Shown: positions 13,404-53,581, counted from the stretch's first letter. The stretch: DNA of 64,000 nucleotides from Nitrospirota bacterium (GCA_963796285.1 CAWCKW010000013.1:416001-480000), one strand, 5' to 3'. Notes: generated by a model not told the origin, from the sequence alone. Numbers and translations: made by a program.

Positions 13404-13582
13404 GAATTGACTTATTCGTAAAAAGTCCAGGTCTACCGCTGAGACACAGGAGGCGCCGAGAGCATTCTTTAATATAAATCAATTTGTATTTCTCCGTGTC
13501 TCCGTTCTATGGCCGCAAGTTTTACGCGAGAGCAGGCTACGCCTCTGCGGTAAATTAATGACTTAATTATGAGAAATCATCA
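13404..13582. repeat. Composite non-autonomous hairpin element containing a micro-insert
   Basis: Outer arms tcgtaaaaagtc / gacttaattatgag; inner arms taccgctgag.. / ..ctctgcggta; insert at 13505-13539. Confidence 0.65.
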
Positions 13583-13640
13583 CTATTTTGACCCGTACCG
13601 TAGGAGCTATTGTTCTTTAGTGGAACAAAGGAGAGCCGCC

Positions 13641-14954
13641 ATGATGAGTACCTCATTGCACCCGGACCTGCCGTTGATCCAGGATGCCGATCTGGAGGGG
13701 AAGGTCGTCCTGGTCCGGTTCGACCATAACGTCGTGAAGGACGGAGCGATCCGGGACCCCTTCCGCATCGACCGCACCATCGGCACGCTCTTCCATATCG
13801 TCGAGCGGGGGGGCAGGCCCATCATGATGACCCATGTGGGCAGGCCCCGGGACAAGAAGTCCGATACCATTACCTGCAGGCCCGAAGAGTCCGTCGAGCC
13901 GATCGTGCGCTATCTCGAGCAGAAGCTTCATTCAAAACTGTATCTCCCCCGCTTCCCGGTTGATCCGAAGCAGGGGATAACCGGGATCGATACGTCCATC
14001 AACCTTGCGGTCAGGGACCTGCGGGAGCGGAAGATCGGAGGGATCTACCTTCCGAACACCCGGTGGTTCCAGGGAGAGGAGGCCGAGGGAGAGCTCCGGG
14101 AGCGCTTCGCGCTCCAGCTTGCCGGCCTGGCCGACATCTACGTGAACGACGCCTTCGGCTCGTGGCAGCCCCATGCCTCGACGGAGAACATCACCCGGCT
14201 CGTCCCCTCGTACGCGGGCTTCCTGCTCCAGCAGGAGATCATGCACCTCGAAGGCGTCATGAACCCGGACCGGCCCTTCCTCGCCGTGGTCGCAGGCGCA
14301 AAGTACGACACCAAGATAAAGCCCTTGAACGCCATCTACGACAAGGTGGACCGGCTGGTGCTCGGCGGGGTCATCTACAATACCTACCTCTGCGCAAAAT
14401 ACCAGGTCAGCATCAGCGGGGTGAGTAACGAGGACCGCGCGCTTGCGCAGGAACTGGTCCACAAGGACCGCGAGCGGAAGAAGATCGTCGAACTGCCCTT
14501 TATCGTGGAATCGGATGTCAGGGAGGGAAGGATCGAAGGCAGGTACCGGACCATCTCCGTCAAGGACTTCAAGCCCGGCAATTCCTACGGATACGTCATG
14601 GACATCGACCCGCGGTCCTTCGAGGAAAAGACCGTCGCCGAGGCCATTCAGACCGCAAAGACCATCTTCGTCAATGCCGTCATGGGATACACTCCCCACT
14701 TTTCCGCCGGGTCCCAGGCCCTCGACAACACCATCGACCTGAACCGGGACGCCATGAAGATGTACGGCGGCGGAGATACCCTCCAGGAGTTCAAGAACCT
14801 TCTGCCGGGCCTGTATCTGTCCGTCATGGACGACGCGAGCTACTACTTCTTCACCGGCGGCGGCACCGTGCTCACGGCGATCGAGCACGGAAGCCCCTAC
14901 AGCCTCAAGCCGGTGCAGGCGTTGATGGAGGCGAAAAGGAGACAAGGGGAATGA
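13641..14954 (+). CDS. pgk: Phosphoglycerate kinase-family protein (divergent)
   Basis: GKVVLVRFDHNV, THVGRP, DIYVNDAFG, AGAKYDTK, GGGDT and FTGGG; SD AGGAG before 13641. Confidence 0.8.
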   Translation: MMSTSLHPDLPLIQDADLEGKVVLVRFDHNVVKDGAIRDPFRIDRTIGTLFHIVERGGRPIMMTHVGRPRDKKSDTITCRPEESVEPIVRYLEQKLHSKLYLPRFPVDPKQGITGIDTSINLAVRDLRERKIGGIYLPNTRWFQGEEAEGELRERFALQLAGLADIYVNDAFGSWQPHASTENITRLVPSYAGFLLQQEIMHLEGVMNPDRPFLAVVAGAKYDTKIKPLNAIYDKVDRLVLGGVIYNTYLCAKYQVSISGVSNEDRALAQELVHKDRERKKIVELPFIVESDVREGRIEGRYRTISVKDFKPGNSYGYVMDIDPRSFEEKTVAEAIQTAKTIFVNAVMGYTPHFSAGSQALDNTIDLNRDAMKMYGGGDTLQEFKNLLPGLYLSVMDDASYYFFTGGGTVLTAIEHGSPYSLKPVQALMEAKRRQGE

Positions 14955-14965
14955 AACGACAAGAG

Positions 14966-15289
14966 ATCGCGTACGCTGCTCTTGCGATAACACGGGCACA
15001 GGCAGAGGCGCAAAGCTCGCAAAGAAAGGCTAAATTATTTCTAAAAGATACGACCGTACCAAATGCCAAACCTTTTCGCGCAAAGCCGTAGCCTGCTGTT
15101 GCCAAAACGCGGCCATAAACAAAGTCGCAAAGAACGTCAACTACATGGGAAACTTGATACGTTCGTAAGAAAACAATCAAGCCTGATTCAGAATGTACAC
15201 GAGACCTGCTTTCCTTTGCGACTTTGCGTCTTTGCGAGAGAACAATTTTCGGTTTTGATTTTTTTAGTTCCGGTTTGTCCGGGTTAGGG
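14966..15289. repeat. Composite cgcaaag-repeat hairpin element with two 31-nt micro-inserts
   Basis: Core closely similar to 61187-61389; inserts at 14972-15002 and 15089-15119. Confidence 0.8.
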
Positions 15290-15303
15290 TTTGAGGTGAG
15301 ACA

Positions 15304-16350
15304 ATGCGATATCGAAATCTTGGAAGAACGGGCCTGTATGTATCCGAGCTGTGTTTGGGCACCATGACCTTCGGAGGAAAAGGAGTCTGGGAAGCCATTG
15401 GACGGCTGACGGCTGACGACGCGGAGGCGCTCATCGGCACGGCCCTTGATGCCGGTGTGAACTTCATCGATACGGCTGATGTCTACTCGGAGGGTGTTTC
15501 GGAAACGTTCGTGGGCGCGGCGCTCGCCAGGCTCGGCAGGCCGCGCGAGCAAACGATCATCGCCACGAAGGTCCGCGGCCGCACAGGCCCCGGTCCGAAC
15601 CAAGCGGGCCTTTCGCGCAGCCACATCCTCGCCTCGATCGACGCGAGTCTGCGCCGCCTGAACCTGGACTTCATCGACCTTTACCAGATCCACGGCGCTG
15701 ACCTCCAGACACCGATCGAAGAGACTATGCAGGCTCTCGACGACGTGGTGCGGGCCGGCAAGGTCCGCTACGTAGGGTTCTGCAATCTTCCCGCGTGGAT
15801 GGCGATGAAGGCGCTTGCCTGCTCCGATGCCCATGGCTGGGCGCGCTTTGTCAGCGCGCAGATGCACTACTCGATCGCAAGCCGCGACATCGAGCGCGAG
15901 GTCGTGCCGCTTGCCCGGGACCAGGGTCTCGCGGTGCTCCCCTGGAGCCCCCTTGCAGGCGGCCTGCTTTCAGGCAAATTCGACATGGAGAATCCCGGGC
16001 CGGCGGGCGCGCGTCGTACGTCCTATGACTTCCCGCCGGTCGATCGCGAGCGCACGAAGACCGTGCTCAAGACGATGCGGGCTGTTTCAGCGGATACCGG
16101 CCTGTCTGTTGCCCGGGTCGCCCTTGCGTGGCTCTTGACGCGGCCCTTTGTCACCAGCGTCATCATTGGAGCAAAAACGCGGGACCAGCTCGCAGACAAC
16201 CTCGCCGCAAGCGATGTGCGACTTGCCCCCGGCCAGATTGCACAGCTCGATGCCGTAAGCGAGTTGCCGTCCGAGTATCCGGGCTGGATGGTCGCGAGAC
16301 AGAACAAAGACGGCCGGCCTCCGGCTGAGGGAAAGAGCGTGGCCGCGTAA
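15304..16350 (+). CDS. Aldo/keto reductase
   Basis: LGRTGLYVSELCLGTMTFG, DTADVYSEG, IATK, IDLYQIH and WSPLAGGLL. Confidence 0.95.
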   Translation: MRYRNLGRTGLYVSELCLGTMTFGGKGVWEAIGRLTADDAEALIGTALDAGVNFIDTADVYSEGVSETFVGAALARLGRPREQTIIATKVRGRTGPGPNQAGLSRSHILASIDASLRRLNLDFIDLYQIHGADLQTPIEETMQALDDVVRAGKVRYVGFCNLPAWMAMKALACSDAHGWARFVSAQMHYSIASRDIEREVVPLARDQGLAVLPWSPLAGGLLSGKFDMENPGPAGARRTSYDFPPVDRERTKTVLKTMRAVSADTGLSVARVALAWLLTRPFVTSVIIGAKTRDQLADNLAASDVRLAPGQIAQLDAVSELPSEYPGWMVARQNKDGRPPAEGKSVAA

Positions 16351-16404
16351 AGAGCGCAGGGCCTTCACGTTTTCTTTTTGTTGTCCGGCCCGCTTCACTC
16401 ACAC

Positions 16405-17061
16405 CTACTGCTTCTTGAAAACTACATCGGCAAAATAGCTCTCGGCAGAGGTACCGGTATGCTGTGAATTTATCTGGAGCCTGATCCCGTTCACTGCCGG
16501 CGGTTCGGAACCATAGAGCTTTTTGTAATCATCATACACGTTCCGGGTCTCTTCGATCCATTTCCCCAGTTCAGCCGGACCCGAACGCAGCACCACGATC
16601 TTGACCGTCATGAAGGGGACCGGGGACGTGTCTTCCATGAGCCCTGCGGGCGCCGTCGTGTCCCAGATGTAGACGATCGCCTTTGTCTTAGAGAACGCCA
16701 CGAAGAGCTGGGCCGCCTGGTCATCGGTCTTCGACTTCCTGAAGTCGCCGCCCGCCGGAAGTTTGGTCACCTTCCATTTCCAGGTGAGCCAAGGATATTG
16801 CTTGAGGTCCACCTTCACTTCCTTCTGGAGCGAGAAAGACGTGTTGGCGCTCCGGAACCTGCCCGCGGCGACATCTCCGTCCTTGACCACGGCAAAGTCC
16901 GCCTTGCCGGATTTTTCCTTGAGCTCCCAACCCGCAGGGGCCCCTGCCGCGCCGATGTGGGAAGGAAAGTCCGTGATCGCCATCCGGTCCTCAGCCTGGA
17001 CCAGTGGAGCAACAATGAGCACGAAAAACAGAATACTATTGAACACCATTGGGACAGACAT
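16405..17061 (-). CDS. Exported protein, DUF3047-like
   Basis: Signal peptide; YPWLTWKWKV, DDQAA, YIWD, WIEETRNVYDDY and NSQHTG. Confidence 0.75.
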   Translation of the reverse strand: MSVPMVFNSILFFVLIVAPLVQAEDRMAITDFPSHIGAAGAPAGWELKEKSGKADFAVVKDGDVAAGRFRSANTSFSLQKEVKVDLKQYPWLTWKWKVTKLPAGGDFRKSKTDDQAAQLFVAFSKTKAIVYIWDTTAPAGLMEDTSPVPFMTVKIVVLRSGPAELGKWIEETRNVYDDYKKLYGSEPPAVNGIRLQINSQHTGTSAESYFADVVFKKQ

Positions 17062-17199
17062 CGCACACCTCCTTGGATAAAATACCGCCAGCATCCTCCT
17101 TGCCGTGTACTCAACGATTATGCACTTCAACGCCTCGGGTAACGTCGGGGACCCCGCCCTACGATGTTCCCTCTCTGGTAATTGCACAGATCGTCAGGC

Positions 17200-18267
17200 T
17201 CAGATCTTGGCACGCAGATACTGCGACGGCCACGGTACGTCGACGCCCAGGACCCGCGCCGCCTCGAGCGGCCAATACGGTTTGCGCAGCATCTCGCGCG
17301 CGAGCAGCACCGCGTCGGCAAGACCCGTGGCAATGATCTGCTCGGCCTGGATGGGATCGGTGATGAAGCCGACCGTGCCGGTGGCGATATTTACTTGCTG
17401 CCGGATCGCGGTGGCAAACGGGGTCTGGAAACCGGGGCCCGTCGGGATGACGGCATGCGGCACGGTCCCGCCGCCGGAGCAGTCAATGAGATCGATGCCC
17501 GTATCCTTCAAGCGCCGGCAGAGTTCAATGGACTGCGCCAGGTCCCATCCGCCGTCCACCCAGTCGGTGGCGGAGATGCGCGCGAAGACCGGCAGCTCTT
17601 CGGGCCAGACCTCCCTCACCGCGCGGGCAATGCTCAGGGGAAAGCGCATGCGGTTCTCCAGGCTCCCGCCGTATTCGTCCGTTCTGTGGTTCGTGAGCGG
17701 TGACAGGAACTCGTGCAGCAAATAGCCGTGCGCCATATGGATCTCCAGGACCTGAAAACCGGCGGCTTGAGCACGCCGGGCCCCGTCGACGAACTGCCGG
17801 CGAATGGTCTCCAGGTCTTCCGCCGTAATTTCTCGGGGAACGGGATGGCCCGGAGCAAAGGGGATCGGGCTCGGCGCGATTGGCTGCCAGCCGCGATGCT
17901 CCGGTCCCAGCGGCCCTCCTCCCAGCCACGGGAGATCCGTGGAAGCCTTGCGTCCCGCATGGGCGAGTTGGATCCCGGCAACAGCGCCTTGTTCGCGGAT
18001 GAACCTTGCAATAGGAGCAAACGCCGCGGCATGGGCATCGCTCCAGATACCGCTGTCGTCGGGGCTGATCCTGCCTTGCGGGCTCACCGCAGTCGCCTCA
18101 ACATTGACCAGCCCGGCGCCTCCCACTGCGCGGCTTCCCAGATGGACAAGATGCCAGTCGGTAGGCAGGCCGTCGCGGCTCGAATACTGGCACATGGGAG
18201 AAACGAAGATCCTGTTCCGAAAGGTCAGGTCCCGTAATTTCAGGGGAGAGAACAGGCGATTTATCAC
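17200..18267 (-). CDS. NADH:flavin oxidoreductase (old yellow enzyme, YqjM/XenA type)
   Basis: [41 protein letters not shown] and QYLRA. Confidence 0.95.
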
Positions 18268-18385
18268 AACCTTCTCCTTGGCTGGATCGAACAGCCTCTT
18301 TTAGTATTTGAATTCGGATCAAGAGCAGCGACGAACAGTATCAGGCGATAGTTCTTTCTTTGTGAGAAAAGTATATCAGATACAT

Positions 18386-18415
18386 AAAAAAGGGGCTGCA
18401 TAAAGCACCCCTTTT
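18386..18415. terminator. Bidirectional intrinsic terminator
   Basis: aaaaaagggg-ctgcataaagca-cccctttt. Confidence 0.65.
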
Positions 18416-18485
18416 GGTCCCTTCCCGACACGACCCCGTTGGGAACGACCGTGCCTTGTTTCAGTTTTCCGCCGGCCTGTCCGGA

Positions 18486-18674
18486 TCAGGCGGCCATTTT
18501 CAGTTTTTCAAGAACGTTCTCCAGCGCGGCCTCGTCCTCTTTTTTCAGATCATCCCGGTCCGTCTTCCGCATTCGTATTTTTGATACGATTATTCCCCTC
18601 ACTTCCGGGATGATGCTTTTCTCCAGTTCGGTCACGAGCAGATCGCGTTCCTTCTTGTTCAGGTCGATGATCAT
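18486..18674 (-). CDS. Small hypothetical protein
   Basis: 62-aa helical ORF with SD GAGG, followed by a terminator. Confidence 0.6.
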   Translation of the reverse strand: MIIDLNKKERDLLVTELEKSIIPEVRGIIVSKIRMRKTDRDDLKKEDEAALENVLEKLKMAA

Positions 18675-18784
18675 ATCCGTTTACCTCTTATCCCTTGACG
18701 TTCTTCCCTGCCATCTATTTCAAAACAGGCAGCTTTGGGTCTTACGTCTTGCTGTTATCTATAGTCCGGCATAAGGTCATTGCA

Positions 18785-19685
18785 TCATCTCACGATCAGG
18801 ACGGAACACACTGCATGGTTCAGAATATTTCTTGATACGCTGCCCAGCGTTCCCGTCAATCCCCGGGATCCCCGACAGCCAACAGCGATAAGGTCTGCCT
18901 CCATGGCCTCCCCTGCTTTCAATATTTCCGTTGACGGGTCGCCGACCCGGGAGAGCACCTGTATCTGTTTGAACTTTCTGCCGAGATACGCCCGCGCCTT
19001 TTCGAAGATCTTCTCAGCTTCCGTAAATTCCCGGGTCCTGATACTGCTCACGGCGGCCTTGACCCGCTCATCAATTTCCAGAACGAACTGTTCAGGCACG
19101 TCGAGGAAGTTCGACGGGATCACATGCACGATCGTGATCTCGGTAGTCATCGGGAAAAGGAAGGGAAGTCAGGAACTCGGCGGTTGCGCGGGAATGGTCG
19201 GATCCGTCAGCGGCGAAAAGGACCCGCATCCTCTCCGCTGGCACGGGTGGCTGCTGTTTTACGATGAGGACCGGTTTCGGGGCATTGTTCGCGACCGCTC
19301 TCGATACGCTTCCGATAAAGACCGATGCAAGCCCTTTTGTTCCGCTCGCCCCCATCACAATGAGGTCCATGCCCGACGCTTCGGCCGCCTTGATGATGCA
19401 CTGCTCCGGCGTACACGGGTGCAGGGTACCTTCTTCGATCTCCACGCTGATGGCTGCCCGGACAGGCTTGAGGATCGCAACCGCTGAATCGAGGATCTTG
19501 GGTGCGCATTCCTTTTTTATCGACTGCAGGGTCGTCCAGTAGAATTTTTCGTCGTAATGAAAGGGGACCGCGTAAACAGAATGGAAGACCGTGATCGCAT
19601 CATCAGGTGACCATGCCATTCGGGTCAGGAACGATGCCGCACCCTCCGAGGAGAGAGAACCGTCTGTTGCCAGTAAAACTTTCAT
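18785..19685 (-). CDS. Tandem-domain universal stress protein; frameshift at ~19146
   Basis: MKVLLATDGS, DLIVMGASG..GSVS, then FAADGS / DLIAVGCRG..GSVS. Confidence 0.85.
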
Positions 19686-19958
19686 GGGTGCTCACCTTTT
19701 TTGGAACACCGAAGCGGAGTGCATATCCAGAAGTGTTGTCTCATAGCGCGGTTCAACCTCTCCCGTTAGCCGTCCGTTGACCCGGACAGTTAAATTATAG
19801 CATATCCGATGAACAGTATTTTTTGGGTAGAAGATACCCGTAAGCCTAAAGGCTCTCCCTGGACTCTCACAAAATCCATATGTCCCGCAGTTCGCCACCT
19901 GCAATGTCAGGAGAAAAACGTCTATAATTAGGAAATGAGCCGCCCATCAGGTCCTGAC

Positions 19959-20201
19959 ATGGTGCGCATCGACGGTTCCTTCGGCAAAGGCGGAGGCCAG
20001 CTCTTGCGTACGTCTCTCGCCCTGTCCTGCGTGCTCGGAAAACCAATGAAGATCACGAACATCCGCAGAGCCAGGAAGAACGCCGGACTCCAGACGCAGC
20101 ATCTCACAGCGGTCATGGCTGCCGCGTCCATTGCCGGCGCCGAGGTCCAGGGCGCGGAAGGCCGGGTCGTGATACGCCCCCTGTTCGTTCAGACCACGTG
20201 A
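19959..20201 (+). pseudogene. rtcA: RNA 3'-terminal phosphate cyclase remnant (large internal deletion)
   Basis: [33 protein letters not shown] joined directly to a C-terminus-like GRVVIRP. Confidence 0.8.
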
Positions 20202-20219
20202 CCAGAAGGGAGGGAGGCC

Positions 20220-20561
20220 ATGAAGATCGATTCCTATTCCTTCGGAAGGATCGTCATCAACAAGAAGACCTATACCTCGGACGTTATCATTTATCCCGGC
20301 AGGGTCGACGCGTCGTGGTGGCGAAAGGAGGGGCATCTGCTCCAGTTTGCTGATGTGGCGGAAGCGCTGCAGGCAAAGCCGGACGTGCTCGTCATCGGCA
20401 CGGGCTATGCCGGGGTCATGCGCGTTCCAAAGGAAACCGTTGACCGGATCGCTGCGCTGGGGATCGAGGTGAAGGTGGAACGGACATCATCAGCGGTGGC
20501 ACTGTTCAACGATCTGCAGGGCGCAAAGACCGTAATCGCGGCGCTTCACATTACGTGCTGA
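20220..20561 (+). CDS. Mth938-like domain protein
   Basis: IDSYSFGRIVI, WWRKEGH, VIGTG and ALHITC. Confidence 0.9.
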   Translation: MKIDSYSFGRIVINKKTYTSDVIIYPGRVDASWWRKEGHLLQFADVAEALQAKPDVLVIGTGYAGVMRVPKETVDRIAALGIEVKVERTSSAVALFNDLQGAKTVIAALHITC

Positions 20562-20606
20562 GCACCGTAAAAGGTTAAGCCCTGACAATCATATGAAGGC
20601 ATCCCA

Positions 20607-20680
20607 GGGCTGTTGAAAAATCTTTCTACTCAGGCTGAAGCCAGCGGCCTGAACAACGGGCAATCATTTTTCAATAAGGC
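20607..20680. mobile_element. Possible MITE remnant
   Basis: Imperfect terminal inverted repeats gctgttgaaaaa / tttttcaataag. Confidence 0.35.
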
Positions 20681-20799
20681 AGCCGCACCCTTGAATTGGG
20701 ATCTGGTGCATCTCTTGACTCAATTATTGAATTCTGCTACGGTAGGCTGGTAGCCGATCCCGGTCTTGCCATGAGATGCCGTACGCGAGGTTGAAGAAT

Positions 20800-21318
20800 A
20801 TGAGTGTATTAATCGGGAAAGAGATCGAGAAAGCCTTGAAAAAGGGATTGATAAAGATCGAGCCGCTCGAACAATCACAGATCGGACCAGGCTCGATCGA
20901 TCTTTCTCTCGGGAACGAATTCAGGATCTTCACAAAACGATCAAAAATCTACCACATAAAAAAAGATTCTCATTTTTATGATATTACCACGGCAGTTCAC
21001 GTTAAAGACGGCGGATATCTCGTCATAAAGCCGGGCGAGATGATCCTGGGAATCACGAAGGAAAAAATCACCCTTGCCGATACCATCTCCGGCCGGCTGG
21101 AAGGGAGAAGCCGATTTGCCCGTTTCGGGCTGGCAGTTCACGTGACTGCCGGGTTCATGCATCCGGGCATCTCCAACCATCAGGTCCTGGAAATCGTTAA
21201 TTTAGGAAATGCGCCGCTGGCCTTATACCCCGGCATCAGGATCTGCCAGTTCATATTTGAAAAATGCGAAGGACATGCCAGATATCAGGGGAGATTTGTC
21301 AAGCAGGTCAAACCATAA
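20800..21318 (+). CDS. dcd: dCTP deaminase
   Basis: GPGSIDLSLG, EGRSRFARFGL.VH.TAG, LEIVN and LYPGIRICQ. Confidence 0.92.
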   Translation: MSVLIGKEIEKALKKGLIKIEPLEQSQIGPGSIDLSLGNEFRIFTKRSKIYHIKKDSHFYDITTAVHVKDGGYLVIKPGEMILGITKEKITLADTISGRLEGRSRFARFGLAVHVTAGFMHPGISNHQVLEIVNLGNAPLALYPGIRICQFIFEKCEGHARYQGRFVKQVKP

Positions 21319-21467
21319 CGCCGCTCGTGGAAAGACATCGGGAAGAACTAACCCTGAGTTGTTTTACTCCGAACTCCGAACTTTGATTCCCTCATCCTCA
21401 GCTCCGCCAAAAACCTAATTTTTCACATAAACAACATTAGAGAACGGGAAGCAGGAAGAGCCCGTTC

Positions 21468-23024: not shown

Positions 23025-23033
23025 GATCGTGGA

Positions 23034-23061
23034 ATTATAAGGGGTCACGTTCGTTTGTCAA
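23034..23061 (-). promoter_or_regulatory. Consensus sigma70 promoter of the MFS gene (near-leaderless)
   Basis: TTGACA-N16-TATAAT ending 9 nt before the ATG at 23024. Confidence 0.7.
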
Positions 23062-23217
23062 GGGGAGAGTTTTGAATTGTGGAACGGACCGGAAGTTCGA
23101 ACCGCGGAACGGACCGAGAGGGGAATACGGTGTGGACGAAGAACGCATTGATATCAGCTGAGCGTCTTAAGGATGTTTGATCTTTGAAAAAAAATCCGCC
23201 CTGCGGCCGGAGCTGTC

Positions 23218-25859: not shown

Positions 25860-25872
25860 CCTGGATTCCCCG

Positions 25873-43528: not shown

Positions 43529-43534
43529 AGAGAT

Positions 43535-43608
43535 AGGGACAAGGGTCATGGGGCAAGGGTCAAAAAGTTTTTGACGTTCCCTGACTCATGACCCTTGCCC
43601 CCTGACCC
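43535..43608. repeat. Heptamer-repeat hairpin (gggNcaa / tgaccc type)
   Basis: caagggtcatg pairs with catgacccttg. Confidence 0.7.
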
Positions 43609-43627
43609 GCATTTAGGAGCTTATTCT

Positions 43628-44833: not shown

Positions 44834-44934
44834 CAAATTTCAAATCTCAAATAAATTTCAATAACCAAATTCGAAACGTTTAATAATTGGTGCTCGGAGC
44901 TTATTTGAGATTTGGTGCTTGAATTTTGGAATTT
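44822..44934. repeat. Heptamer-repeat hairpin (caaat.. / ..ttgag type)
   Basis: caaatctcaaataa pairs with ttatttgagatttg. Confidence 0.75.
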
Positions 44935-44945
44935 GCTAAACAGAT

Positions 44946-46376
44946 ATGGCCATGAAAACAAAAATAACAAAAAAATCAAAGTCGCCAAAGAAAGCACCGA
45001 AGAAGACAAAGCCCTGGGGCGGCCGATTCACCGAAGCCACGAACGAGCTCGTGGAGGAGTTCACGGCCTCGGTGCCCTACGACTGGCGCCTCTATCCCTA
45101 CGACATCGCCGGCAGTATCGCCCATGCGACCATGCTCGCCAGGACCGGCATCATCACGAAGAATGATTCTCGCAGGATCATCAAGGGACTCCAGGAGATA
45201 CTGAGGGAGATCGCCTCGGGCGCCTTCGAGTTCAGTATTGAGCTCGAAGACATCCATATGAACATCGAGGACCGGCTGATCCGGAAAATCGGCCCGGTGG
45301 GCGGCAAGCTCCATACGGCGCGGAGCAGAAACGATCAGGTCGCGCTCGACATCCGCATGTATCTGCGCGATGAGATCACCGGGATCCATGAGCTCCTTGG
45401 CTCGCTGCAGAAGGTCATCGTGCAACTCGCGGAGCAGCACAGCGATACGGTCATGCCGGGGTATACCCATCTCCAGCGGGCCCAGCCCGTGCTCTTCGGC
45501 CACCACCTGCTGGCGTACTACGAGATGTTCGACCGCGACCGCGGCCGGCTCGAGGACTGTTTCCGGCGCGTGAACGTCATGCCCCTCGGCGCGGGGGCGC
45601 TGGCGGGGACCGTGCTGCCCATCGACAGAACGTTCATCGCAAAACTGCTGGCCTTCGAAACGGTGTGCGAGAACAGCATCGACGCGGTCTCGGACCGGGA
45701 CTTCTCCATCGAGTTCACGGCGGCCTGCGCCCAGATCATGATGCACCTCTCACGCTTCGCCGAGGAACTCGTCATCTGGTCGTCGTCTGAGTTCGGCTTC
45801 ATCACAATCGGCGATGCGTTCACTACCGGCTCGTCGATCATGCCGCAGAAGAAGAACCCCGACGTGGCCGAACTCACGCGCGGCAAGACCGGCAGGGTCT
45901 ACGGAGACCTGACCGCCCTCCTTACGATCATGAAAGGCCTGCCGCTCGCCTATAACCGCGATATGCAGGAGGACAAGGAGCCGGTCTTCGACGCCTCGGA
46001 CACGGTCATGCTCACCCTCTCAGTGTTCATCGACATGCTTAAAAGCCTCATGGTGCATAAGGATGCGATGCGCAGAGCGGCCGAGGACGGCTTCATCACG
46101 GCCACCGACCTGGCGGACTACCTGGTACGGAAGGGCATGCCTTTCCGCCGGGCGCACGAGATTGTCGGCAGGGCCGTCCTGCTCGCCACCAAGCAAGGTT
46201 GCGGTCTCGGGACCTTGCCGCTCGGCGAGTACCGGAAACTATCTTCACTGATCCGCAAGGACGTGTACGACGCGCTCTCCCTTGAAGCTTCGGTCAACAG
46301 GCGCACCTCGTATGGAGGAACGGCACCGTCGAACCTGAAAAAGCGTCTCCAGGCGCTCAAGAAAAAGATGCAATGA
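44946..46376 (+). CDS. argH: Argininosuccinate lyase
   Basis: [26 protein letters not shown] and [11 protein letters not shown]. Confidence 0.97.
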
Positions 46377-47443
46377 ATAACCGTGTACCATGGTTCTTTG
46401 CGGCCTGTCTTCTCCTGGTTCTGACGACCGCTGTTGCCTGCGGCAGAAAAACGCTGCCCCTGGTCCCCGACAGTCCCAGGCCTGAGGTGATACAAGGGAT
46501 CAAGGTCATGACCCGGGACACTGACGCGTTCCTTTCCTGGCCGATACCGGCCAAGAATGTTGAAGGCAGGGACATCCCCTCAACTGATATCCAGCAATTC
46601 CGCATCTACCGCGCTGAAATCGGACGGGACGGAAAAAAAGGCCGGTACAAGCTTTACGCTGAGATCAACATGGCGGACCCGTCGCCTGCGGAGGTCCGGA
46701 ACAACCGGATCTTCTGGAGCGACCGGAATTTGAAATACGGGCAGGTGTACAGCTACCGGGTCCGGGCAGTGAGCGTCCGGGGAGGAGTAAGCCCGGTGTC
46801 TGACGACGTGCGGGCCGCGCCGCTGTTATCGCTTGCGGTTCCCCAGGGGCTCGCGGCAAAGGCCAACGACAGCTCCATCCAGCTTTCCTGGTCTCCCGTG
46901 ACGACACGCATGGACGGCAGCCGGTACGAAGGCTTTGTTGGATACAACCTGTACCGCGGATCTGAGAAAAACCGCTCTGACGAACTGCCGCTGAACAAGG
47001 AGCCGCTCAGGACGAATTCGTTCAAAGACATCACGGTGTCGAACAATACGACATATTACTATATGGTCCGTGCCGTGGACAGCCCGGCGTTGCCCTGGAG
47101 GGAAAGCCCAGATTCAGAAGAGGTGTCGGCCACGCCCCGGGACACGACACCGCCGGCCAGGCCCAAGGGGCTCGCGGTCGTGCCGGGCGTTGGCAGGGCA
47201 TTCCTCACCTGGAACGAGAACAAGGAGCGGGACCTTGCCGGATACAACGTGTACCGCTCGACCAGACACGGCAGGAACTATCATAAGCTTACGAACAAGG
47301 CCATCACCCTTACGACGTTCTCGGACGAAACGGCGAAGCAGGATGTCGTGTATTATTATATGGTCACCGCCGTGGACAAGGCTGGAAATGAAAGCGCCGG
47401 ATCGGTGGAAAAGAAAGCCTTGATCGAGAAGTTGCAGCAATAG
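46373..47443 (+). CDS. Lipoprotein with about three fibronectin type III repeats
   Basis: Lipobox AVAC then GRKTLPLVP; repeated [18 protein letters not shown] units. Confidence 0.85.
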
Positions 47444-47519
47444 GTCGCAGGCCGAATGGTTCGTCTCCTTAAAGAATTTAAAAGAAAACGGCAACATGGT
47501 TGCCCTGGTCCAATAATCC

Positions 47520-48779
47520 ATGCATGATTTTCACTACAAGAACGGCGAGCTGTACTGTGAAGGAGTCCCGGTAAGGACCGTGGCCCAGCGGGTCGGCACG
47601 CCTTTCTACCTGTACAGCAGCAACACGCTTGCGAACCATTTCAGGGCCTTCGACAGCGCCTTTGCCGGCGTGCCGCACCTTATCTGCTTCGCGCTTAAGT
47701 CCAATTCGAACGGCGCCGTGCTGCGCCTGCTCGGCAGGGAAGGCGCCGGGGCGGACATCGTCTCCGGCGGCGAGCTGTTCCGCGCGCTCCGCGCCGGCAT
47801 CGACCCGAATAAGATCGTCTATGCCGGGGTCGGCAAGCGCAGGGATGAGATCGAGTACGCCCTGAAAATCGGCGTCCTCATGTTCAACGTCGAATCCGGG
47901 GAGGAGTTGCTCGCCCTTGACCAGGCCGCGAAGGAGATGCACGTGGTCGCCAGGATCGCCCTCCGGGTGAACCCGAATATCGACCCCAAAACCCACGCTT
48001 ACATCTCCACCGGGCTCAAGGAGAACAAGTTCGGCATACCCATCGAGCGGGCACTCGAATTTTACCAGATCGCGAAAAGCTTGAAAAACGTGGAAGTGGT
48101 CGGCGTGCACCAGCACATCGGCTCGCAGATCACCGAGGTCCAGCCCTTTGTGGACGCCCTTGAGAAGCTCGTCGGATTCGTTAATGAGCTCAAGTCCGCC
48201 GGCATCGATATTCAATACGTCAATATCGGAGGCGGTCTGGGCATTACCTACAAGGATGAAACGCCCCCTTTGCCGAAGGACGTGGCGCAGGCTGTCCGGC
48301 CCCTGCTTGAGAACAGCGGGTGCACCATCGTGATGGAGCCTGGACGGGCGATCATCGGCAATGCGGGCATCCTCGTAACAAGCGTTCTCTATCACAAGAA
48401 GAGCGGCGAAAAACGCTTCCTCATCGTGGACGCGGGTATGAACGACCTGATCCGGCCGAGCCTCTACGAGGCCTATCACGATATCCGTCCGGTGGTGGAG
48501 TCCGGTGCGGTGGAGGCTGTGTTCGATGTGGTCGGACCGATCTGCGAATCCGGTGATTTCCTTGCCAAGGACCGGAAGATGCCCGAGTTAAAACAGGGCG
48601 CTCTCCTCGCGGTCATGAGCGCGGGGGCCTACGGGTTTTCCATGTCCTCGAACTACAACTCCCGGCCTCGCGCGGCCGAAGTGATCGTCAAGGGAAATGA
48701 TTATTACATCGTTCGGGAACGCGAGACCTACGAAGACCTTGTCAGGGGCGAGAAGGTCCCGCGGCAGCTGGAGGGATGA
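47520..48779 (+). CDS. lysA: Diaminopimelate decarboxylase
   Basis: FALKSN, RVNP, HIGSQ, GGGLG, EPGR, GPICESGD and AGAYGFSMSSNYN. Confidence 0.97.
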   Translation: MHDFHYKNGELYCEGVPVRTVAQRVGTPFYLYSSNTLANHFRAFDSAFAGVPHLICFALKSNSNGAVLRLLGREGAGADIVSGGELFRALRAGIDPNKIVYAGVGKRRDEIEYALKIGVLMFNVESGEELLALDQAAKEMHVVARIALRVNPNIDPKTHAYISTGLKENKFGIPIERALEFYQIAKSLKNVEVVGVHQHIGSQITEVQPFVDALEKLVGFVNELKSAGIDIQYVNIGGGLGITYKDETPPLPKDVAQAVRPLLENSGCTIVMEPGRAIIGNAGILVTSVLYHKKSGEKRFLIVDAGMNDLIRPSLYEAYHDIRPVVESGAVEAVFDVVGPICESGDFLAKDRKMPELKQGALLAVMSAGAYGFSMSSNYNSRPRAAEVIVKGNDYYIVRERETYEDLVRGEKVPRQLEG

Positions 48780-48786
48780 GAGGATC

Positions 48787-48869
48787 CACCACGAAGTCAC
48801 CAAGAGACGAAGGGAATCATGGTGATCCCTTATTCGTGAAATGTCTTTGTGTCTTCAGGTCTTGGTGGT
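48787..48869. repeat. Tandem-repeat hairpin (caccacgaag / cttggtggt type)
   Basis: Imperfect inverted arms between lysA and dapF. Confidence 0.65.
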
Positions 48870-48883
48870 AAACAGGTTTCATT

Positions 48884-49696
48884 ATGAAAAAAATACCTTT
48901 TTATAAGTTGCAGGGAACGGGGAACGATTTCATCCTGATCGACAACCGGAGGGCTGTCCTGAAGGGGATGAACCTGAAGGGCCTGGCGGTGCGCGTCTGC
49001 GACCGGCACTACTCTGTCGGCGCCGACGGCCTGATCGTGATCGTGCCGTCGAAGAAGGCGGACTTTAAATGGCGGTTCTTCAACGCCGACGGGAGCGAAG
49101 CCGAGATGTGCGGGAACGGTTCGCGGTGCGCGGCACGGTTTGCGCACCTGAAAAAGATCGCGAAGAAGGACATGGCCTTCGAGACGCTCGCCGGGACCAT
49201 CCATGCGCAGGTGAAGAAGGACACGGTCAGGGTACAGCTCGCCGCTGCCGCCGGCCTGCGCATGAATATCTCCGTCCCGCTCGAAAGCGGACTGCGTATG
49301 GGCCACTTCATCAACACCGGAGTGCCGCACCTCGTCTATCTCTCCAAGGACCTGGACAACGAGGACGTTGACCGGATCGGAAGGACCACGCGGTATCACG
49401 AACTTTTCAAGCCCGCCGGCACAAATGTGGATTTCATCGAGATCCAGGGCAGGCACAAGCTCAGGATCAGGACCTTCGAACGCGGCGTAGAAGGCGAGAC
49501 CCTGGCCTGCGGCACCGGTTCGGTCGCAGCGGCGCTCATCGCCGGTTCGCTCGGCGCGGCCTCATCGCCGGTCGAGGTCTTGACCAGGGGCGGGGAAAAA
49601 CTGATCATCTCGTTCGAGCGCTCGGGGATAGAGTTCAACACCATTCACCTCGAGGGTAACGCAGAGGTGATCTGCGAGGGGAATCTGTATCTGTGA
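48884..49696 (+). CDS. dapF: Diaminopimelate epimerase
   Basis: GTGNDF, NADGSEAEMCGNG, TGVPH and ERGVEGETLACGTG. Confidence 0.97.
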   Translation: MKKIPFYKLQGTGNDFILIDNRRAVLKGMNLKGLAVRVCDRHYSVGADGLIVIVPSKKADFKWRFFNADGSEAEMCGNGSRCAARFAHLKKIAKKDMAFETLAGTIHAQVKKDTVRVQLAAAAGLRMNISVPLESGLRMGHFINTGVPHLVYLSKDLDNEDVDRIGRTTRYHELFKPAGTNVDFIEIQGRHKLRIRTFERGVEGETLACGTGSVAAALIAGSLGAASSPVEVLTRGGEKLIISFERSGIEFNTIHLEGNAEVICEGNLYL

Positions 49697-49711
49697 TGAA
49701 ATAACAAAAGC

Positions 49712-49921
49712 AATCACAGAGAGCACAGAGAAGTACTCCTGTTCTCAAATTACTCAACATAAGGCCATTCTTGATGATATAAAGAATGAGGAAGATGAAA
49801 TAATTGCGGTTATAAGAGCGAACTGAGGGGGAGGCTGGTAAAAAGCCAGGCCAATTTGAGATCTACAGATTTCTCCGTGTGCTCTGCCTGCACCCGCGTT
49901 TCGCAAGAGCAGGGTGTGGTT
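49712..49921. repeat. cacagag-repeat hairpin element with a micro-insert
   Basis: aatcacagagagcacagag ... ctccgtgtgctctg[insert 49887-49916]tggtt. Confidence 0.7.
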
Positions 49922-49960
49922 CATTTTTGACATTGCGTGTTGCAGAAGAAGGAGGCTGTC

Positions 49961-50833
49961 ATGTTTAAAGGCTCAATGGTTGCGATTGTAACGCCGTTCA
50001 GGAACGGGAAGGTGGACGAGAAGGCGCTTGGCGATCTGATCGAGTTCCATATTAAAAGCGGCACGGACGTGATCGTCCCCTGCGGCACCACGGGCGAGTC
50101 CGCCACCCTCTCCCATGAGGAGCACCACCACGTGGTCGAGTTCACCGTGCAGACGGTGAACAAGCGTGTGCCGGTGGTCGCGGGCGCGGGATCGAACTCG
50201 ACCTCTGAAACGCTGGAGCTCACGAAGTACGCTCAGAAAGCGGGCGCAAACGGCGTGCTGCTCATCACTCCCTATTACAACAAGCCGACGCAGGAAGGGC
50301 TTTACCAGCATTTCAAGAAGGTGACCGACTCGGTCGACATCCCCGTTATCCTGTACAACGTTCCAGGCAGGACCAGCGTGAACATGCTGCCAGCCACCGT
50401 GGCGCGCCTCAGGGAGATCAAAAACATCGTCGGCATCAAGGAAGCGACCGGCGACCTGAAGCAGGTCAGCGAGCTCATCCGTCTCTGCGGCAGGGACTTT
50501 GACGTTATTTCGGGCGACGACTTCACCACGCTCCCGCTCCTCGCCATCGGCGGGGTGGGCGCCATCTCGGTGACCGCGAATATCGTCCCGGCCGATGCCG
50601 CGGGAATGTTCGACGCGTTCTTCGCAGGAAAGATGGAGGAGGCGCTCAAGCTCCACTACAAGATGGAACCGCTCCACAGCTTCATGTTCATCGAGACGAA
50701 CCCGATCCCGGTGAAGACCGCGCTCGCGCTCATGGGCAGGATCAACGAGGAGTTCCGCCTGCCTCTTTGCGCAATGAGCGACGCGAACAAGGACAAACTC
50801 AAGAAAGCGCTGAAGGATTACGGATTGATGTAG
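49961..50833 (+). CDS. dapA: 4-hydroxy-tetrahydrodipicolinate synthase
   Basis: GTTGES, PYYNKP, YNVPGRT, GIKEA and ETNPIPVK. Confidence 0.97.
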   Translation: MFKGSMVAIVTPFRNGKVDEKALGDLIEFHIKSGTDVIVPCGTTGESATLSHEEHHHVVEFTVQTVNKRVPVVAGAGSNSTSETLELTKYAQKAGANGVLLITPYYNKPTQEGLYQHFKKVTDSVDIPVILYNVPGRTSVNMLPATVARLREIKNIVGIKEATGDLKQVSELIRLCGRDFDVISGDDFTTLPLLAIGGVGAISVTANIVPADAAGMFDAFFAGKMEEALKLHYKMEPLHSFMFIETNPIPVKTALALMGRINEEFRLPLCAMSDANKDKLKKALKDYGLM

Positions 50834-50842
50834 ATCAATCCT

Positions 50843-50958
50843 TTCACCGCAGAGAACGCAGAGCGCGCAGAGAAAAAAAGGGTAACTCTTTTCGTTTTTC
50901 TCCGTGTCTCCGTTTATGGCCGCGTTTTGGCAACAGCAGGCTACGCCTCCGCGGTAAA
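50843..50958. repeat. cgcagag-repeat hairpin element with a 31-nt micro-insert
   Basis: accgcagagaacgcagag ... ctccg[insert 50913-50943]cgcctccgcggt. Confidence 0.8.
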
Positions 50959-50975
50959 TTTCAAGAGGTGAAACC

Positions 50976-51785
50976 ATGATTAAGGCAGTCGTCACCGGCG
51001 CGGCCGGCAGAATGGGCTCGCGAATCATCAATGTGCTGTCAACTTCCGAAGATATCCGTCTTTCAGGGGCCGTCGAGCGTAAAGGTCATCCGCTCGTGGG
51101 CCAGGATTCATGCGGCCCGGCCGGGCTTCCCGCAGGCGGGGTCCTGACCGTGATCACCGACGATCTCGCCGCGGCGCTCAAGGCCGGCGATGCGCTCATT
51201 GACTTCACCTTTCCGGAAGCAAGTCTTGGGCATATCAAGGCTTGCGCGGAATTGGGCAAACCCGCCGTCATAGGTTCCACCGGGTTTTCAAAAGAGCAGC
51301 TCGGGGAGATCAAGAACTACGTTCAGAAAATCCCCTGCGTTCTTTCGCCGAATATGAGCGTTGGCGTGAATGTCTGTTTCAAGGCCCTTGCCGATCTCGC
51401 GAAAACGCTGGGGAGCGATTTCGACGTTGAGATCGTCGAAGCGCACCACCGATTAAAGAAGGACGCTCCCTCCGGCACCGCCGTTCGCATGGGAGAAGTG
51501 GTGGCCGCCGCCCTCGGCCGCGACTATCGCCAGGTGGCCAGGTGCCACCGTGAGGGGATCACGGGAGAACGGACAAAAGAGGAAATCGGCATGCAGACCA
51601 TACGCGGCGGCGATATTGTTGGAGAGCACACGGTCTACTTCATCGGCATGGGAGAGCGGATCGAGCTCACCCATCGTGCGCACACGCGCGACATGTTCGC
51701 GCGCGGGGCCGTGCGCGCGGCGAAATGGGTCGTCGGCAAAAAGCCGGGACTCTACGATATGCAGGATGTGCTGGGGCTGAAATAA
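50976..51785 (+). CDS. dapB: 4-hydroxy-tetrahydrodipicolinate reductase
   Basis: GAAGRMG, IDFT and EAHHRLKKDAPSGTA. Confidence 0.97.
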   Translation: MIKAVVTGAAGRMGSRIINVLSTSEDIRLSGAVERKGHPLVGQDSCGPAGLPAGGVLTVITDDLAAALKAGDALIDFTFPEASLGHIKACAELGKPAVIGSTGFSKEQLGEIKNYVQKIPCVLSPNMSVGVNVCFKALADLAKTLGSDFDVEIVEAHHRLKKDAPSGTAVRMGEVVAAALGRDYRQVARCHREGITGERTKEEIGMQTIRGGDIVGEHTVYFIGMGERIELTHRAHTRDMFARGAVRAAKWVVGKKPGLYDMQDVLGLK

Positions 51786-51839
51786 CCGTCTCAGAAGTCT
51801 GTTGAAACCAACGATTATTCATTATAAAAGGAGAATTAC

Positions 51840-52610
51840 ATGAAAAAGAGCATTGTAGTGATGGTCGCTTGTCTTCTGATCTCTGTACCGTTGAGCGCTC
51901 ATGCCTTTCCGACCAAGAAGGGCGACAAGGCCTGTACAGAATGCCACAAGCTGAGCAAGCAGGAAGCGGAAACGATCGTGAAAAAGATCGCGCCGAACGG
52001 AACGGTCACCGATATCAAGGTGGCGCCGCTCAAAAGCATGTGGCAGATCCAAGTGGACGCGGGCGAAGGAAAACACGGCACGCTCTATCTCGACTTTTCA
52101 AAACAATATGTCGTCTTTGGACAGATCGCTCCGGTCGAGTCCCTTGGCAAGCAGCCGCCAGCTCGCAAAGTCGATGTATCCAAGATTCCGCTCGTTGACG
52201 CGATCGTTCTGGGTTCGGCAACGGCCACGAAGAAGGTTATCGTGTTCACCGACCCGGATTGCCCCTATTGCCGTCAGCTCCATGAGATCATGAAGCAGGT
52301 GGTGGCAAAGCACACCGATGTTTCCTTTGCCCTGATCATGAACCCGCTGCCCATGCATAAGGATTCTCCGAAAAAGGCGCAGACGATCCTCTGCACCAAG
52401 TCCGTCGCCATCCTCGATGACGCCTTCAGCGGCAAACCAGTGCCTGAACCGGCGGCAACCTGCACCGCCGCCGCGGTGGAGAGAAGCACGGCCCTTGCCC
52501 GATCGCTCGAATTCAACGGCACCCCGACCCTTGTCCGCGATGACGGCATGGTGCTTTCCGGTTTTCTGCCGGAAGAACAGCTTCTAAAGTGGATCGATAA
52601 AAAGCAGTAA
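51840..52610 (+). CDS. dsbC: DsbC-family disulfide isomerase with an N-terminal CxxCH
   Basis: Signal peptide, CTECH, FTDPDCPYC and GTPT. Confidence 0.85.
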   Translation: MKKSIVVMVACLLISVPLSAHAFPTKKGDKACTECHKLSKQEAETIVKKIAPNGTVTDIKVAPLKSMWQIQVDAGEGKHGTLYLDFSKQYVVFGQIAPVESLGKQPPARKVDVSKIPLVDAIVLGSATATKKVIVFTDPDCPYCRQLHEIMKQVVAKHTDVSFALIMNPLPMHKDSPKKAQTILCTKSVAILDDAFSGKPVPEPAATCTAAAVERSTALARSLEFNGTPTLVRDDGMVLSGFLPEEQLLKWIDKKQ

Positions 52611-52624
52611 GAGCGGGGCGCTGG

Positions 52625-53383
52625 ATGAAGCTCGTGCGATATCAGGTTCACAGCAGGACGGCGTATGGCATTCTGAACAATGACCGTGTTGCGGAGCTTG
52701 ACGGAAGCTATCTTAGCGGCCTTGCAACGCCCGCGGCCGACTATGCGCTTTCCGGGGTGAAATTGCTTGCCCCGTGCAATCCCTCGAAGATAGTCGCTGT
52801 GGGGCTCAACTACCGTGACCATGCAAACGAGCTTCGCATGGCAACGTCTGAGACCCCCATCGTCTTTCTGAAGCCACCCACGACCATCGTCGGCCCCGGC
52901 GAAGCGATCGTTTATCCCGGGATGAGCTCACAGGTGGACTACGAGGCGGAACTCGGCGTGGTGATCAAGGACCGGGTGAGGAACGTCAGTCCTGATGAGG
53001 CGCTCGGCCATGTTCTCGGATACACATGCGCGAATGATGTGACGGCGCGCGATCTCCAGACAAAGGACGGACAGTGGACTCGCGCTAAGTCCTTTGACAC
53101 CTTCTGTCCTGTGGGGCCGTGGATCGAGACCGACCTCAACCCCGACGATCTCCTCATCGAATCCTATCTCAACGGAGAGCGGCGGCAGTCGTCGCGAACA
53201 AAGCAGTTTATTTTCAAGGTGAACGCTCTCGTAAGCTTCATCTCGAAGATCATGACGCTTGAACCCGGGGACCTCATCATAACCGGCACCCCGGAGGGTG
53301 TAGGGCCGATGAAGCCCGGCGACGAGATCGAAGTGAGGATCGAAGGGATCGGGAGTTTGAAGAATACCGTCATTGCAAATTGA
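52625..53383 (+). CDS. Fumarylacetoacetate hydrolase family protein
   Basis: GLNYRDHA, DYEAELG, NDVTARD, KSFDTF and TGTPEG. Confidence 0.92.
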   Translation: MKLVRYQVHSRTAYGILNNDRVAELDGSYLSGLATPAADYALSGVKLLAPCNPSKIVAVGLNYRDHANELRMATSETPIVFLKPPTTIVGPGEAIVYPGMSSQVDYEAELGVVIKDRVRNVSPDEALGHVLGYTCANDVTARDLQTKDGQWTRAKSFDTFCPVGPWIETDLNPDDLLIESYLNGERRQSSRTKQFIFKVNALVSFISKIMTLEPGDLIITGTPEGVGPMKPGDEIEVRIEGIGSLKNTVIAN

Positions 53384-53399
53384 TTAATAAATAAAAATC

Positions 53400-53581
53400 A
53401 AAGGCATTTTCGCGCAATGGCCAAGAAGAGGGCCACACTGAGGCGCAAAGACGCAAAGAAAGCGATGAAACTATAATCTGTTATTCTTGTAGTTCTTTGC
53501 GAGCTTAGTTTATGCCCGCGTTATGGCAACAGCAGGGTACGTCTTTGCGCGAGACGCCTTGCCTTTGACCTGAATAATTAC
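53400..53581. repeat. cgcaaag hairpin/MITE copy carrying two different micro-inserts
   Basis: Right end gacgcctt..tttgacctgaataattac, as in the 34406 and 61187 copies; inserts at ~53415-53439 and 53509-53539. Confidence 0.75.

Follow-up and report, generated by a model that had tools for sequence, protein, structure and literature searches.

A 64,000-nt stretch of the genome of a Nitrospirota bacterium (assembly GCA_963796285.1, contig CAWCKW010000013.1, positions 416001-480000; the whole stretch is called the window below) carries six copies of a 31-nt hairpin unit, here named H, which is probably a miniature, non-coding and non-autonomous mobile DNA element of the kind of repetitive extragenic palindromes (REPs) and small dispersed repeats. 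H is a new family of a kind already known, REP or small dispersed repeat. As the original prediction had claimed, the unit is discrete, oriented, seamless and non-coding: relatives show matching sites with and without it, and identical copies lie in different flanks. The assembly, G000 in what follows, comprises 3.58 Mb in 13 contigs, and the window corresponds to its C13:416001-480000 (contigs, genomes and loci are referred to by C, G and L numbers).

H reads TA[G/C]CCTGCT[G/C]TTGC[C/G]A-NNN-CGCGG[C/G]CA[T/C]A[A/G][A/G]. The canonical 31-mer occurs at 15089-15119 on the plus strand and, identically, at 50913-50943 on the minus strand, and a copy with three differences, of the subtype with C3:G25, is found at 53509-53539 (minus); none of 100 dinucleotide-preserving shuffles contained any 31-mer match. 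We built a covariance model, R1, with 79 copies as the training set, and ran it with filters off over the window and two further loci (69,212 bases). The window gave exactly six matches, with E values from 1.8e-16 to 3e-5, the next best match having an E value of 0.096. These are the six copies originally predicted and no others, the only correction being that the last of them starts at 13506 instead of 13505. The copy at 15089 scored 53 bits (E 1.8e-16). The three diverged copies lie at 14972-15002 (plus; 32.2 bits, E 6.4e-9) in the spacer downstream of pgk, at 49887-49916 (minus; 26.8 bits, E 5.7e-7) upstream of dapA, and at 13506-13539 (minus; 22.1 bits, E 3e-5) upstream of pgk. The last has an inner part longer by 3 nt, and the one upstream of dapA is 30 nt long, begins with CA where the others have TA, and ends in the tail TGCAGG.

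All six insertion targets read as they had been written, and target duplication was not seen. On the H strand they include gccg|caaag for the 15089 copy, ggcg|cggag for the 50913 copy, gacg|ctaag for the 53509 copy, cgcg|cagag for the 14972 copy and acca|cagag for the 49887 copy. The 15089 copy sits in the left CAAAG-heptad arm of a palindromic repeat of about 190 nt (15050-15243) with arms made of tandem CGCAAAG units. The 50913 copy occupies the right arm of a hairpin between dapA and dapB (50846-50955) that has three tandem units per arm, the left-hand units being of CGCAGAG type and the right-hand ones of CTCCGNG type, and the host of the 53509 copy is a hairpin with CGCAAAG-type arms (53440-53558). 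An empty version of the first of these sites is present in the window itself, at 61230-61249 (plus), in a paralogue of the 15050-15243 repeat, the paralogous matches over the empty junction made in silico being ungapped. The filled element (15077-15132) reads ..cgcgcaaagccg[31 nt]caaagtcgcaaag.. and the empty one ..cgcgcaaagccg|caaagtcgcaaag.., with the junction at 61239/61240, just as this filled and empty pair had been described. The two repeats, at about 15050-15243 and 61197-61361, are co-linear except for 31 extra bases between ...gcaaagccg and caaagtcgc... in the first. Neither end base of the 15089 insert is the same as the base on the far side of the junction, which makes its boundary unambiguous.

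Across the assembly R1 gave 74 matches at E <= 0.01, a figure in which the inner and outer readings of nested copies are both counted. Copies were also counted with blastn-short, nhmmer and scans for exact half-sites. The exact 5' half, TA[GC]CCTGC[TA][GC]T, is present 75 times and its reversed control 8 times; half-sites allowing one mismatch were dropped as a copy finder, the 3' half giving 1865 matches against 2139 for its reversed control, which is noise. Among the 75 exact 5' halves, 44 belong to simple units of 30-34 nt (41 of them exactly 31 nt) and 13 have their first 3' end 43-62 nt downstream and are nested composites. For the other 18, no 3' end follows inside 120 nt; inspection by eye assigns four to a second element, X, and three to degenerate copies, and the rest are seemingly chance matches in genes. 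Element X (C6:21527, C12:165244, C12:1149144 and C12:1440210, located by eye) is 42-43 nt long, has the same ends as H (TACCCTGC...GGGCACAGG) and the same target, and has CACTCG as a direct repeat in its interior. G000 yields 12 readings of composites 61-62 nt long, and since they are present in different flanks we conclude that nested composites spread as units. H inserted in X is also the commonest context among the metagenome copies listed (many loci, L261-L362). All 56 H units of G000 are intergenic, seven that were flagged as lying in open reading frames being spurious calls of a crude gene finder (the dapA-dapB copy, for instance). The five identical copies of G000 are all located at 289-467 kb of C13, in three types of flank. 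Inverted pairs of H in opposite arms of one host hairpin were found twice (C12:901986/902111 and C13:24769/24886).

When each of 53 outermost units was removed in silico, the joined 30-nt flanks of 37 matched another place in the genome without a gap and over at least 12 nt per side. For nested copies the empty partner is a simple H unit, and for H inserted in X it is an X without H, at C6:21518-21569 (96% identity over 52 nt). Sites matched between genomes show the same pattern. In the dapA-dapB spacer, H is present in G000 and G004, which are sisters in a dapA tree (support 98/99), and is missing from G006, G003, G002 and G005. In G006, G003 and G002 the arm keeps its three units and lacks H at the exact junction, and in G005 the arm is about one unit shorter. 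In the spacer downstream of pgk, the site filled at 14972-15002 in G000 is empty in G004 (ttcacg|caaaggcgcaaagctcgcaaag, that is ttcacg|caaagg), and the right arm of G004 holds an H where the same place in G000 has none. The spacers upstream of dapA and pgk, with the 49887 and 13506 copies, are too divergent between genomes for filled and empty states to be scored.

We compared 30 sites of G004 with G000. Nine are filled in both according to the pattern, 19 have no pattern match in G000 and two have no orthologue there. By eye, four of the 19 carry in G000 a copy that is nested, different or degenerate (L204, L206, L221 and the first copy of L207), five are cleanly empty within an arm that can be aligned (both arms of L202, L225, L229 and the second copy of L207), and in about ten the whole host repeat is missing or replaced. 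At L206, G004 has a simple unit and G000 a nested composite of 62 nt. The genes flanking filled and empty sites are about 95% identical between the genomes. Metagenome contigs gave two further empty versions, both of them weak, each being a single contig in repeated DNA: one (run X1) skips exactly 50913-50943, with 30 letters on the shorter side, and one (run X6) has CGG in place of 53509-53542, with 26 letters on the shorter side, so that the unit is absent. This metagenome material consists of contigs, not reads, and is silent on starts, ends, expression and the frequency of empty alleles. At L202 the two arms of the host hairpin hold H copies of different subtypes in G004, the hairpin of G000 (C12:1637711-1637753) being free of H, and each filled arm has one heptad unit more than the empty arm. 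Copying of H from arm to arm was rejected here, the two copies being of different subtypes.

The target can be summarized as NCG|CRRR, with H always in one orientation relative to the motif and the target not duplicated. In 52 distinct flank contexts of G000, position -2 is C in all 52, -1 is G in 48 (A in the remaining four) and +1 is C in 51, with purines at +2 in 47 and at +3 and +4 in 52 of 52. A metagenome sample of at least 121 loci, giving 105 distinct contexts among the matches listed, shows the same preference (C at -2 in 100, G at -1 in 94, C at +1 in 104; purines at +2, +3 and +4 in 98, 103 and 104). These contexts are partly non-independent, many hosts being repeats themselves. Four classes of host carry the motif: arms of tandem units, of at least six kinds (CGCAAAG, CGCAGAG, CGCGGAG, CGCGAAG, CGCAGAT and GCGGAAT/GCGGATT), loops of a second H copy read on the opposite strand (TTCG|CAAGAG), loops of a second H copy that has the same orientation, and element X (CG|CGAGTG). 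The claim that H inserts into several unrelated hosts was thus borne out, the hosts being heptad arms of at least six unit types, its own loops and X.

Some host repeats are of note in themselves. The ~190-nt palindromic repeat with CAAAG-heptad arms has a conserved core of about 100 nt and paralogues at C13:289552, C6:67328, C1:13312 and window 61197-61361; matching pieces occur in G003 and G004, and the 221-nt host repeat had no match in a plasmid collection. A long hairpin with three tandem units of 7-9 nt per arm lies in the dapA-dapB spacer (window 50846-50955; orthologues L120-L127) in every genome of the genus looked at. Its units are of CGCAGAG/CTCYGYG type in G000, G004, G006, G003, G002 and G005 and of GGGAAGG/CCYTCCC type in G001 and G007, so that the structure is kept while both arms change together. 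An origin of the heptad arrays by target-site duplication and later excision was set aside at dapA-dapB, the empty and the filled arms of this site holding the same three units.

H is distributed patchily: R1 matched 33 of the 64 genomes in the GTDB family of G000, with 0 to 70 matches per genome. Genomes rich in H are G000, G004, G013, G074, G020, G061, G023 and G066, and G063, G069, G075, G019, G014 and G054 are complete and lack it. Within genus g12 the counts are 35, 10 and four zeros; in genus g32 nine of 15 genomes have a match, and genomes with a completeness score of 99-100% have none. In a phylum-wide sample of 151 genomes only the family of G000 gave matches (10 of 27 genomes besides G000 itself), the 123 genomes from 21 other Nitrospirota families giving none. 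Identical 24-nt cores are shared by G000, G004, G013 and G020. A scan of a genome collection with a loose pattern gave at least 116 matches; among those listed, about 15 were true copies and the rest chance matches in coding DNA, so that no distribution can be read from it; the true copies among them were all in records titled as Nitrospirota or Nitrospirae metagenome-assembled genomes (MAGs). One exact H copy, in a CGGAG-type context, is present in a 26-kb IMG/VR contig (L250), possibly a prophage or chromosomal DNA filed wrongly. One copy in one viral contig is not enough to make a case for carriage of H by phages.

An alignment of H sequences, A1, points to a fold with an outer stem of 3-5:23-25 and 7-8:21-22, T6 being bulged, and an inner stem of 9-10:15-16 closed by a TTGC loop, with bases 17-20 unpaired. 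With this fold, ..(((.((((....))....)))))......., 97.0% of the cells of A1 are paired, and the covariation score is 0.287, compared with 0.079 for shuffles (none of 500 reached 0.287) and at most 0.064 for slid controls. Two-sided changes are seen at three pairs: 3:25 (CG 37, GC 33, other 7), 10:15 (CG 45, GC 30) and 9:16 (UA 71, AU 3, UG 3), and all four combinations of the states of 3:25 and 10:15 are present. The compensatory swap from G3:C25 to C3:G25, first noticed in the 53509 copy, is therefore real and recurs across the family. The bulged fold initially proposed pairs 87.0% of the cells and is half right: its outer pair 3:25 covaries, and its inner part (G10-C20, T11-A19 and T12-A18) needs correction, 10:20 being unpaired in 47 of 77 sequences, with 9:16 and 10:15 covarying instead. 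Hence the idea of structural selection stands as far as covariation supports a constraint, with an inner stem other than the one proposed. Structure prediction for the dapA-dapB host hairpin with H gave a three-way junction, in which the basal and distal host stem is intact and H forms a side branch.

At NCG|CRRR, H is acquired or dropped as one exact block, and its orientation relative to the motif does not vary. We suggest that the movement would involve single-stranded DNA and a trans-acting strand-transferase that may recognise the foot of the hairpin, (G)TA[G/C]. The motif recurs in the heptad arms of intergenic hairpins, in the H loop (on the other strand) and in X, so that H accumulates in other repeats and in itself, and the nested composites of 61-62 nt then spread as units. 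Since H is predicted to fold on its own, it would be accommodated as a side branch that leaves the host stem intact, which may account for its persistence.

Several observations weigh against reading H as a mobile element. The fold is weak in isolation: H alone has about -5 kcal/mol as DNA, and the z scores of the three best copies (-1.0 to +0.1) are no better than those of shuffles. The 77 distinct sequences of A1, from several genomes, are mutually related, and the pattern by which they were gathered has columns 4-9, 11-14, 21-24 and 26-27 fixed (one mismatch allowed) and only columns 3, 10, 15-20 and 25 free. In arms of three units H is almost always found two units away from the loop, and many of the host hairpins themselves form a repeat family, so that some H copies may have multiplied along with their hosts. 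At dapA-dapB the deeper fork of the single-gene tree is not settled, and one gain or one precise loss both fit. There is no orientation bias relative to flanking genes in G000 (22 same, 15 opposite) and no replication-strand bias: around the GC skew switch of C12, at about 780 kb, the copies divide into seven plus and two minus before it and nine plus and nine minus after it. No cognate enzyme for H was identified in G000 or its relatives. G000 has no multi-copy transposase, its multi-copy genes belonging to apparent strain-variant contigs, and no transposase-like family recurs beside the copies in 105 loci of relatives and the neighbourhoods in G000, where only large paralogous families (response regulators, ABC-F-like ATPases) do. 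PF01797 is found at two places in G000, and R1 detected no H in the assembled flanks of either, one flank of the gene on C12 being unassembled. A comparison of coordinates in G013 and G020 found no H pattern within 2 kb of a Y1 gene. Across 41 genomes the counts of PF01797 do not track those of H, these being MAGs in which absence is unproven; pattern copies and PF01797 matches are, respectively, 31 and 0 in G004 (89% complete), 7 and 0 in G009, 0 and 2 in G003, and 0 and 10 in G014.

These results bear on the possibility that H is a substrate of a Y1 HUH enzyme in the strict sense of REPs with their REP-associated tyrosine transposase (RAYT), or of the insertion sequences IS200/IS605, the RAYT having decayed or being missing from the assemblies. 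We consider this possible and on balance doubtful. The bulged imperfect stem and the oriented insertion with no duplication fit it, as does the junction (C)G|TA[G/C], which resembles a GTAG or GTAC tag at the foot of the hairpin (as the tag is defined in PMC3733652). Of the two PF01797 places, one is an IS200/IS605 TnpA of 140 aa (C13:80663-81028; NF033573, 163 bits), whose flanks have CCCAGCAGCTCTGCTGCTGGG-type hairpins unrelated to H. The other is a RAYT-like Y1 gene at C12:2055289-2055564 (L002), at the extreme end of the largest contig, from whose last base about 70 bases separate it and where a repeated gene would break the assembly. It is split over two frames of 134 and 164 aa, apparently by a frameshift, and may be broken or an assembly artefact; its score against REP_Tyr_transpos is 50 bits, with a cut-off of 80. 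Both the family and the phylum commonly have intact RAYT-like forms, about 300 aa long (G006, G008, G020 and G023 among the carriers), and activity in the G000 lineage alone could explain all the differences between G000 and G004. A trans-acting Y1 enzyme could be missed, because the genomes are MAGs and repeated genes break assemblies. On the other side, the Y1 genes examined have no flanking H, H is one hairpin instead of two different ends, and the left target NNCG is unlike the 3' end of the element (TAAA, CAAG, CAGG), so that a single guide in the style of IS608 is not evident. For IS200/IS605 elements an orientation bias relative to the replication strand is expected. The link to HUH/Y1 enzymes made in the original prediction was not supported by these tests: the end hairpins of the IS200 are unrelated, the RAYT-like gene has no adjoining H, and neither co-occurrence nor strand bias was found. 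A Y1 HUH enzyme of RAYT or IS200 type would still be the best known analogue for the mover.

It is rather unlikely that H, X and the composites are moved by a mechanism other than Y1 HUH, with an activity specific to the family that would cut NCG|CRRR and paste a folded single strand of 31 nt. The tandem heptad arms, which change fast, may be shaped by this activity as well, and the mechanism could be that of the cyanobacterial small dispersed repeats. If true, this would be a new way of moving DNA, acting on about the smallest unit known. Insertion of the types known for integron attC sites, serine recombinases and tyrosine recombinases was set aside, both junctions being free of a common core or dinucleotide.

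That H is instead an optional module of the heptad-arm repeats, spread and lost by homologous recombination or gene conversion between hosts with no dedicated enzyme, we regard as improbable. The host hairpins are multi-copy, with 333 arms of at least two tandem C[GA]C[AG][AG]A[GT] units in G000 against 71 for the reversed motif, the place of H in the arm is nearly fixed, and the filled form at L202 has one extra heptad unit per arm. Moreover, in several comparisons of G000 and G004 the whole host repeat is replaced (L204, L219 and about ten others), and one site holds different composites in the two genomes. A module exchanged between hosts does not, however, account well for identical H copies whose flanks agree at no more than about 5-7 of 9 bases per side, for H in H loops and in X, which have only NCG|CRRR in common with heptad arms, or for clean 31-nt differences in arms that are otherwise conserved; the same H subtypes also occur in different heptad types across genera (CGCAGAT, GCGGAAT, CACGGAT).

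It is highly improbable that H is kept by selection as a protein-binding site or an RNA module of intergenic hairpins, with its spread secondary: conservation across genera is high, down to the identical 24-nt cores, the stem covaries, the units are strictly intergenic, and gyrase binding and effects on mRNA stability are known for REPs (PMC3733652), but close relatives differ from 0 to 70 copies and complete genomes of the same genera lack H, both orientations relative to transcription are used (22 versus 15), sites are filled or empty between genomes with about 95% identical flanking genes, and nesting in its own loop would disrupt a simple binding site.

Larger arrangements and other repeats were also seen. 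In G023, three H copies 187 nt apart belong to a tandem array of a larger repeat (C13:10867-11271; L176/L178/L180). In G000, inverted repeats of 237 nt, 93% complementary and each with an H-in-X composite, surround a 5.7-kb segment at C12:1108523-1114683 (L143 924-7084). The segment, possibly invertible, was rejected as a composite transposon; its genes are a PolX-PHP polymerase, MscS, a YggU-like protein and a cupredoxin-domain protein, and there is no transposase among them. An over-represented module, CCCTAACCCGGACAAGCCGGAAMC, occupies window 15255-15285; its core, GGACAAGCCGG, occurs 37 times in the genome, often beside heptad arms, and CGGATTG/CGGAATG and CAGGAGT are further over-represented tandem heptads of G000. 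As to the assembly, blocks of genes on C1 recur on the small contigs C8, C9 and C4, in two to three versions with at least 80% protein identity. They have the look of strain variants, and strain-variant contigs binned together would fit the 5% contamination figure.

The family bears on how very short hairpin repeats spread, such as REP singletons and the cyanobacterial repeats of 21-27 nt. As a probable mobile element, H is an unusually clean case, because it has exact boundaries, a short asymmetric target, self-nesting with propagating composites, and close genomes that differ at matching sites. Over the 64 genomes of a single family the copy number varies between 0 and about 70, a spread suited to a phyletic-profile search for the gene responsible. 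For annotation, H and its heptad-arm hosts make up much of the repeated intergenic DNA of the lineage and should not be taken for small RNA genes or terminators.

A search of Rfam with the whole window gave no match at the gathering score. At E <= 1, the only match in 14900-15300 was SAM-II, at 18.3 bits compared with 44 required, overlapping the 3' end of the 14972-15002 copy and running into the spacer. Neither the motif nor any REP-like element of this lineage was met with in our literature search, and in PMC12306157 Nitrospirota appear only as three cultured members in a genome table. The initial view that H is not a described element therefore holds for the sequence family, which is new in the libraries and literature searched, and fails for its kind, which is already described in GTAG REPs and cyanobacterial small repeats.

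GTAG-tagged REPs are imperfect extragenic palindromes of 20-40 bp with many copies, subfamilies with complementary stems and, at one end, an unpaired tag that reads GTAG (or GYAG, GTRG or GTMG) (Di Nocera et al. 2013, PMC3733652). H is likewise a small (31 nt) imperfect extragenic palindrome with many copies and complementary stem subfamilies. As for the tag, the H junction is G|TA[G/C], with G at -1 in 48 of 52 contexts of G000 and in 94 of 105 among the metagenome matches listed; this G belongs to the target, and the fourth base pairs with position 25 and covaries. According to the same paper, some REP families are 'inserted within' palindromic targets (A. variabilis GTAG-15, T. roseum GTAG-23 and H. 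neapolitanus CGTC-1), and CGTC REPs seem to be without a transposase of their own. The defined target NCG|CRRR and self-nesting are prominent in H, which moreover belongs to Nitrospirota, a phylum name absent from PMC3733652. REPINs are described as doublets moved by RAYTs (Bertels and Rainey 2011, PMC3116915). In contrast, H units are mostly singletons and not inverted doublets, the L202 pair in G004 being of two subtypes; a RAYT flanked by H was not found in the genomes searched, and RAYT presence does not track H.

Elements of the IS200/IS605 group have imperfect bulged hairpins and insert seamlessly and in one orientation beside a short specific sequence, with no duplication. Similarly to these and to palindrome-associated transposable elements, H is inserted 3' of a short specific sequence (NCG) that is not duplicated. 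It differs from IS200/IS605 in having a single hairpin in place of two distinct ends and no strand bias, and the only IS200 of G000 has unrelated end hairpins. Miniature inverted-repeat transposable elements measure 70-300 bp (PMC3733652). H resembles them in being non-coding, multi-copy and intergenic, and differs in being several times shorter, in causing no duplication, and in its ends, TA[G/C]CC and CA[T/C]A[A/G][A/G], which are not inverted repeats.

The small dispersed repeats SDR4, SDR5 and SDR6 of Nostoc punctiforme, from the work of Elhai et al. in 2008, are reportedly 21-27 nt long and share a common hairpin with compensatory changes, and such repeats are said to lie often in tandem heptamers or mini-transposons and also inside their own copies. 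For SDR5 the precise insertion point lies between bases three and four of HIP1 (PMC4390886). H appears to share with these repeats, as described, the very short hairpin, the compensatory changes, the association with tandem heptamers, the self-nesting and the precise insertion in a short motif. It comes from another phylum, is 31 nt long and has NCG|CRRR and not HIP1 as its target. Judged by analogy, the Nostoc small dispersed repeats are the closest parallel to H in behaviour.

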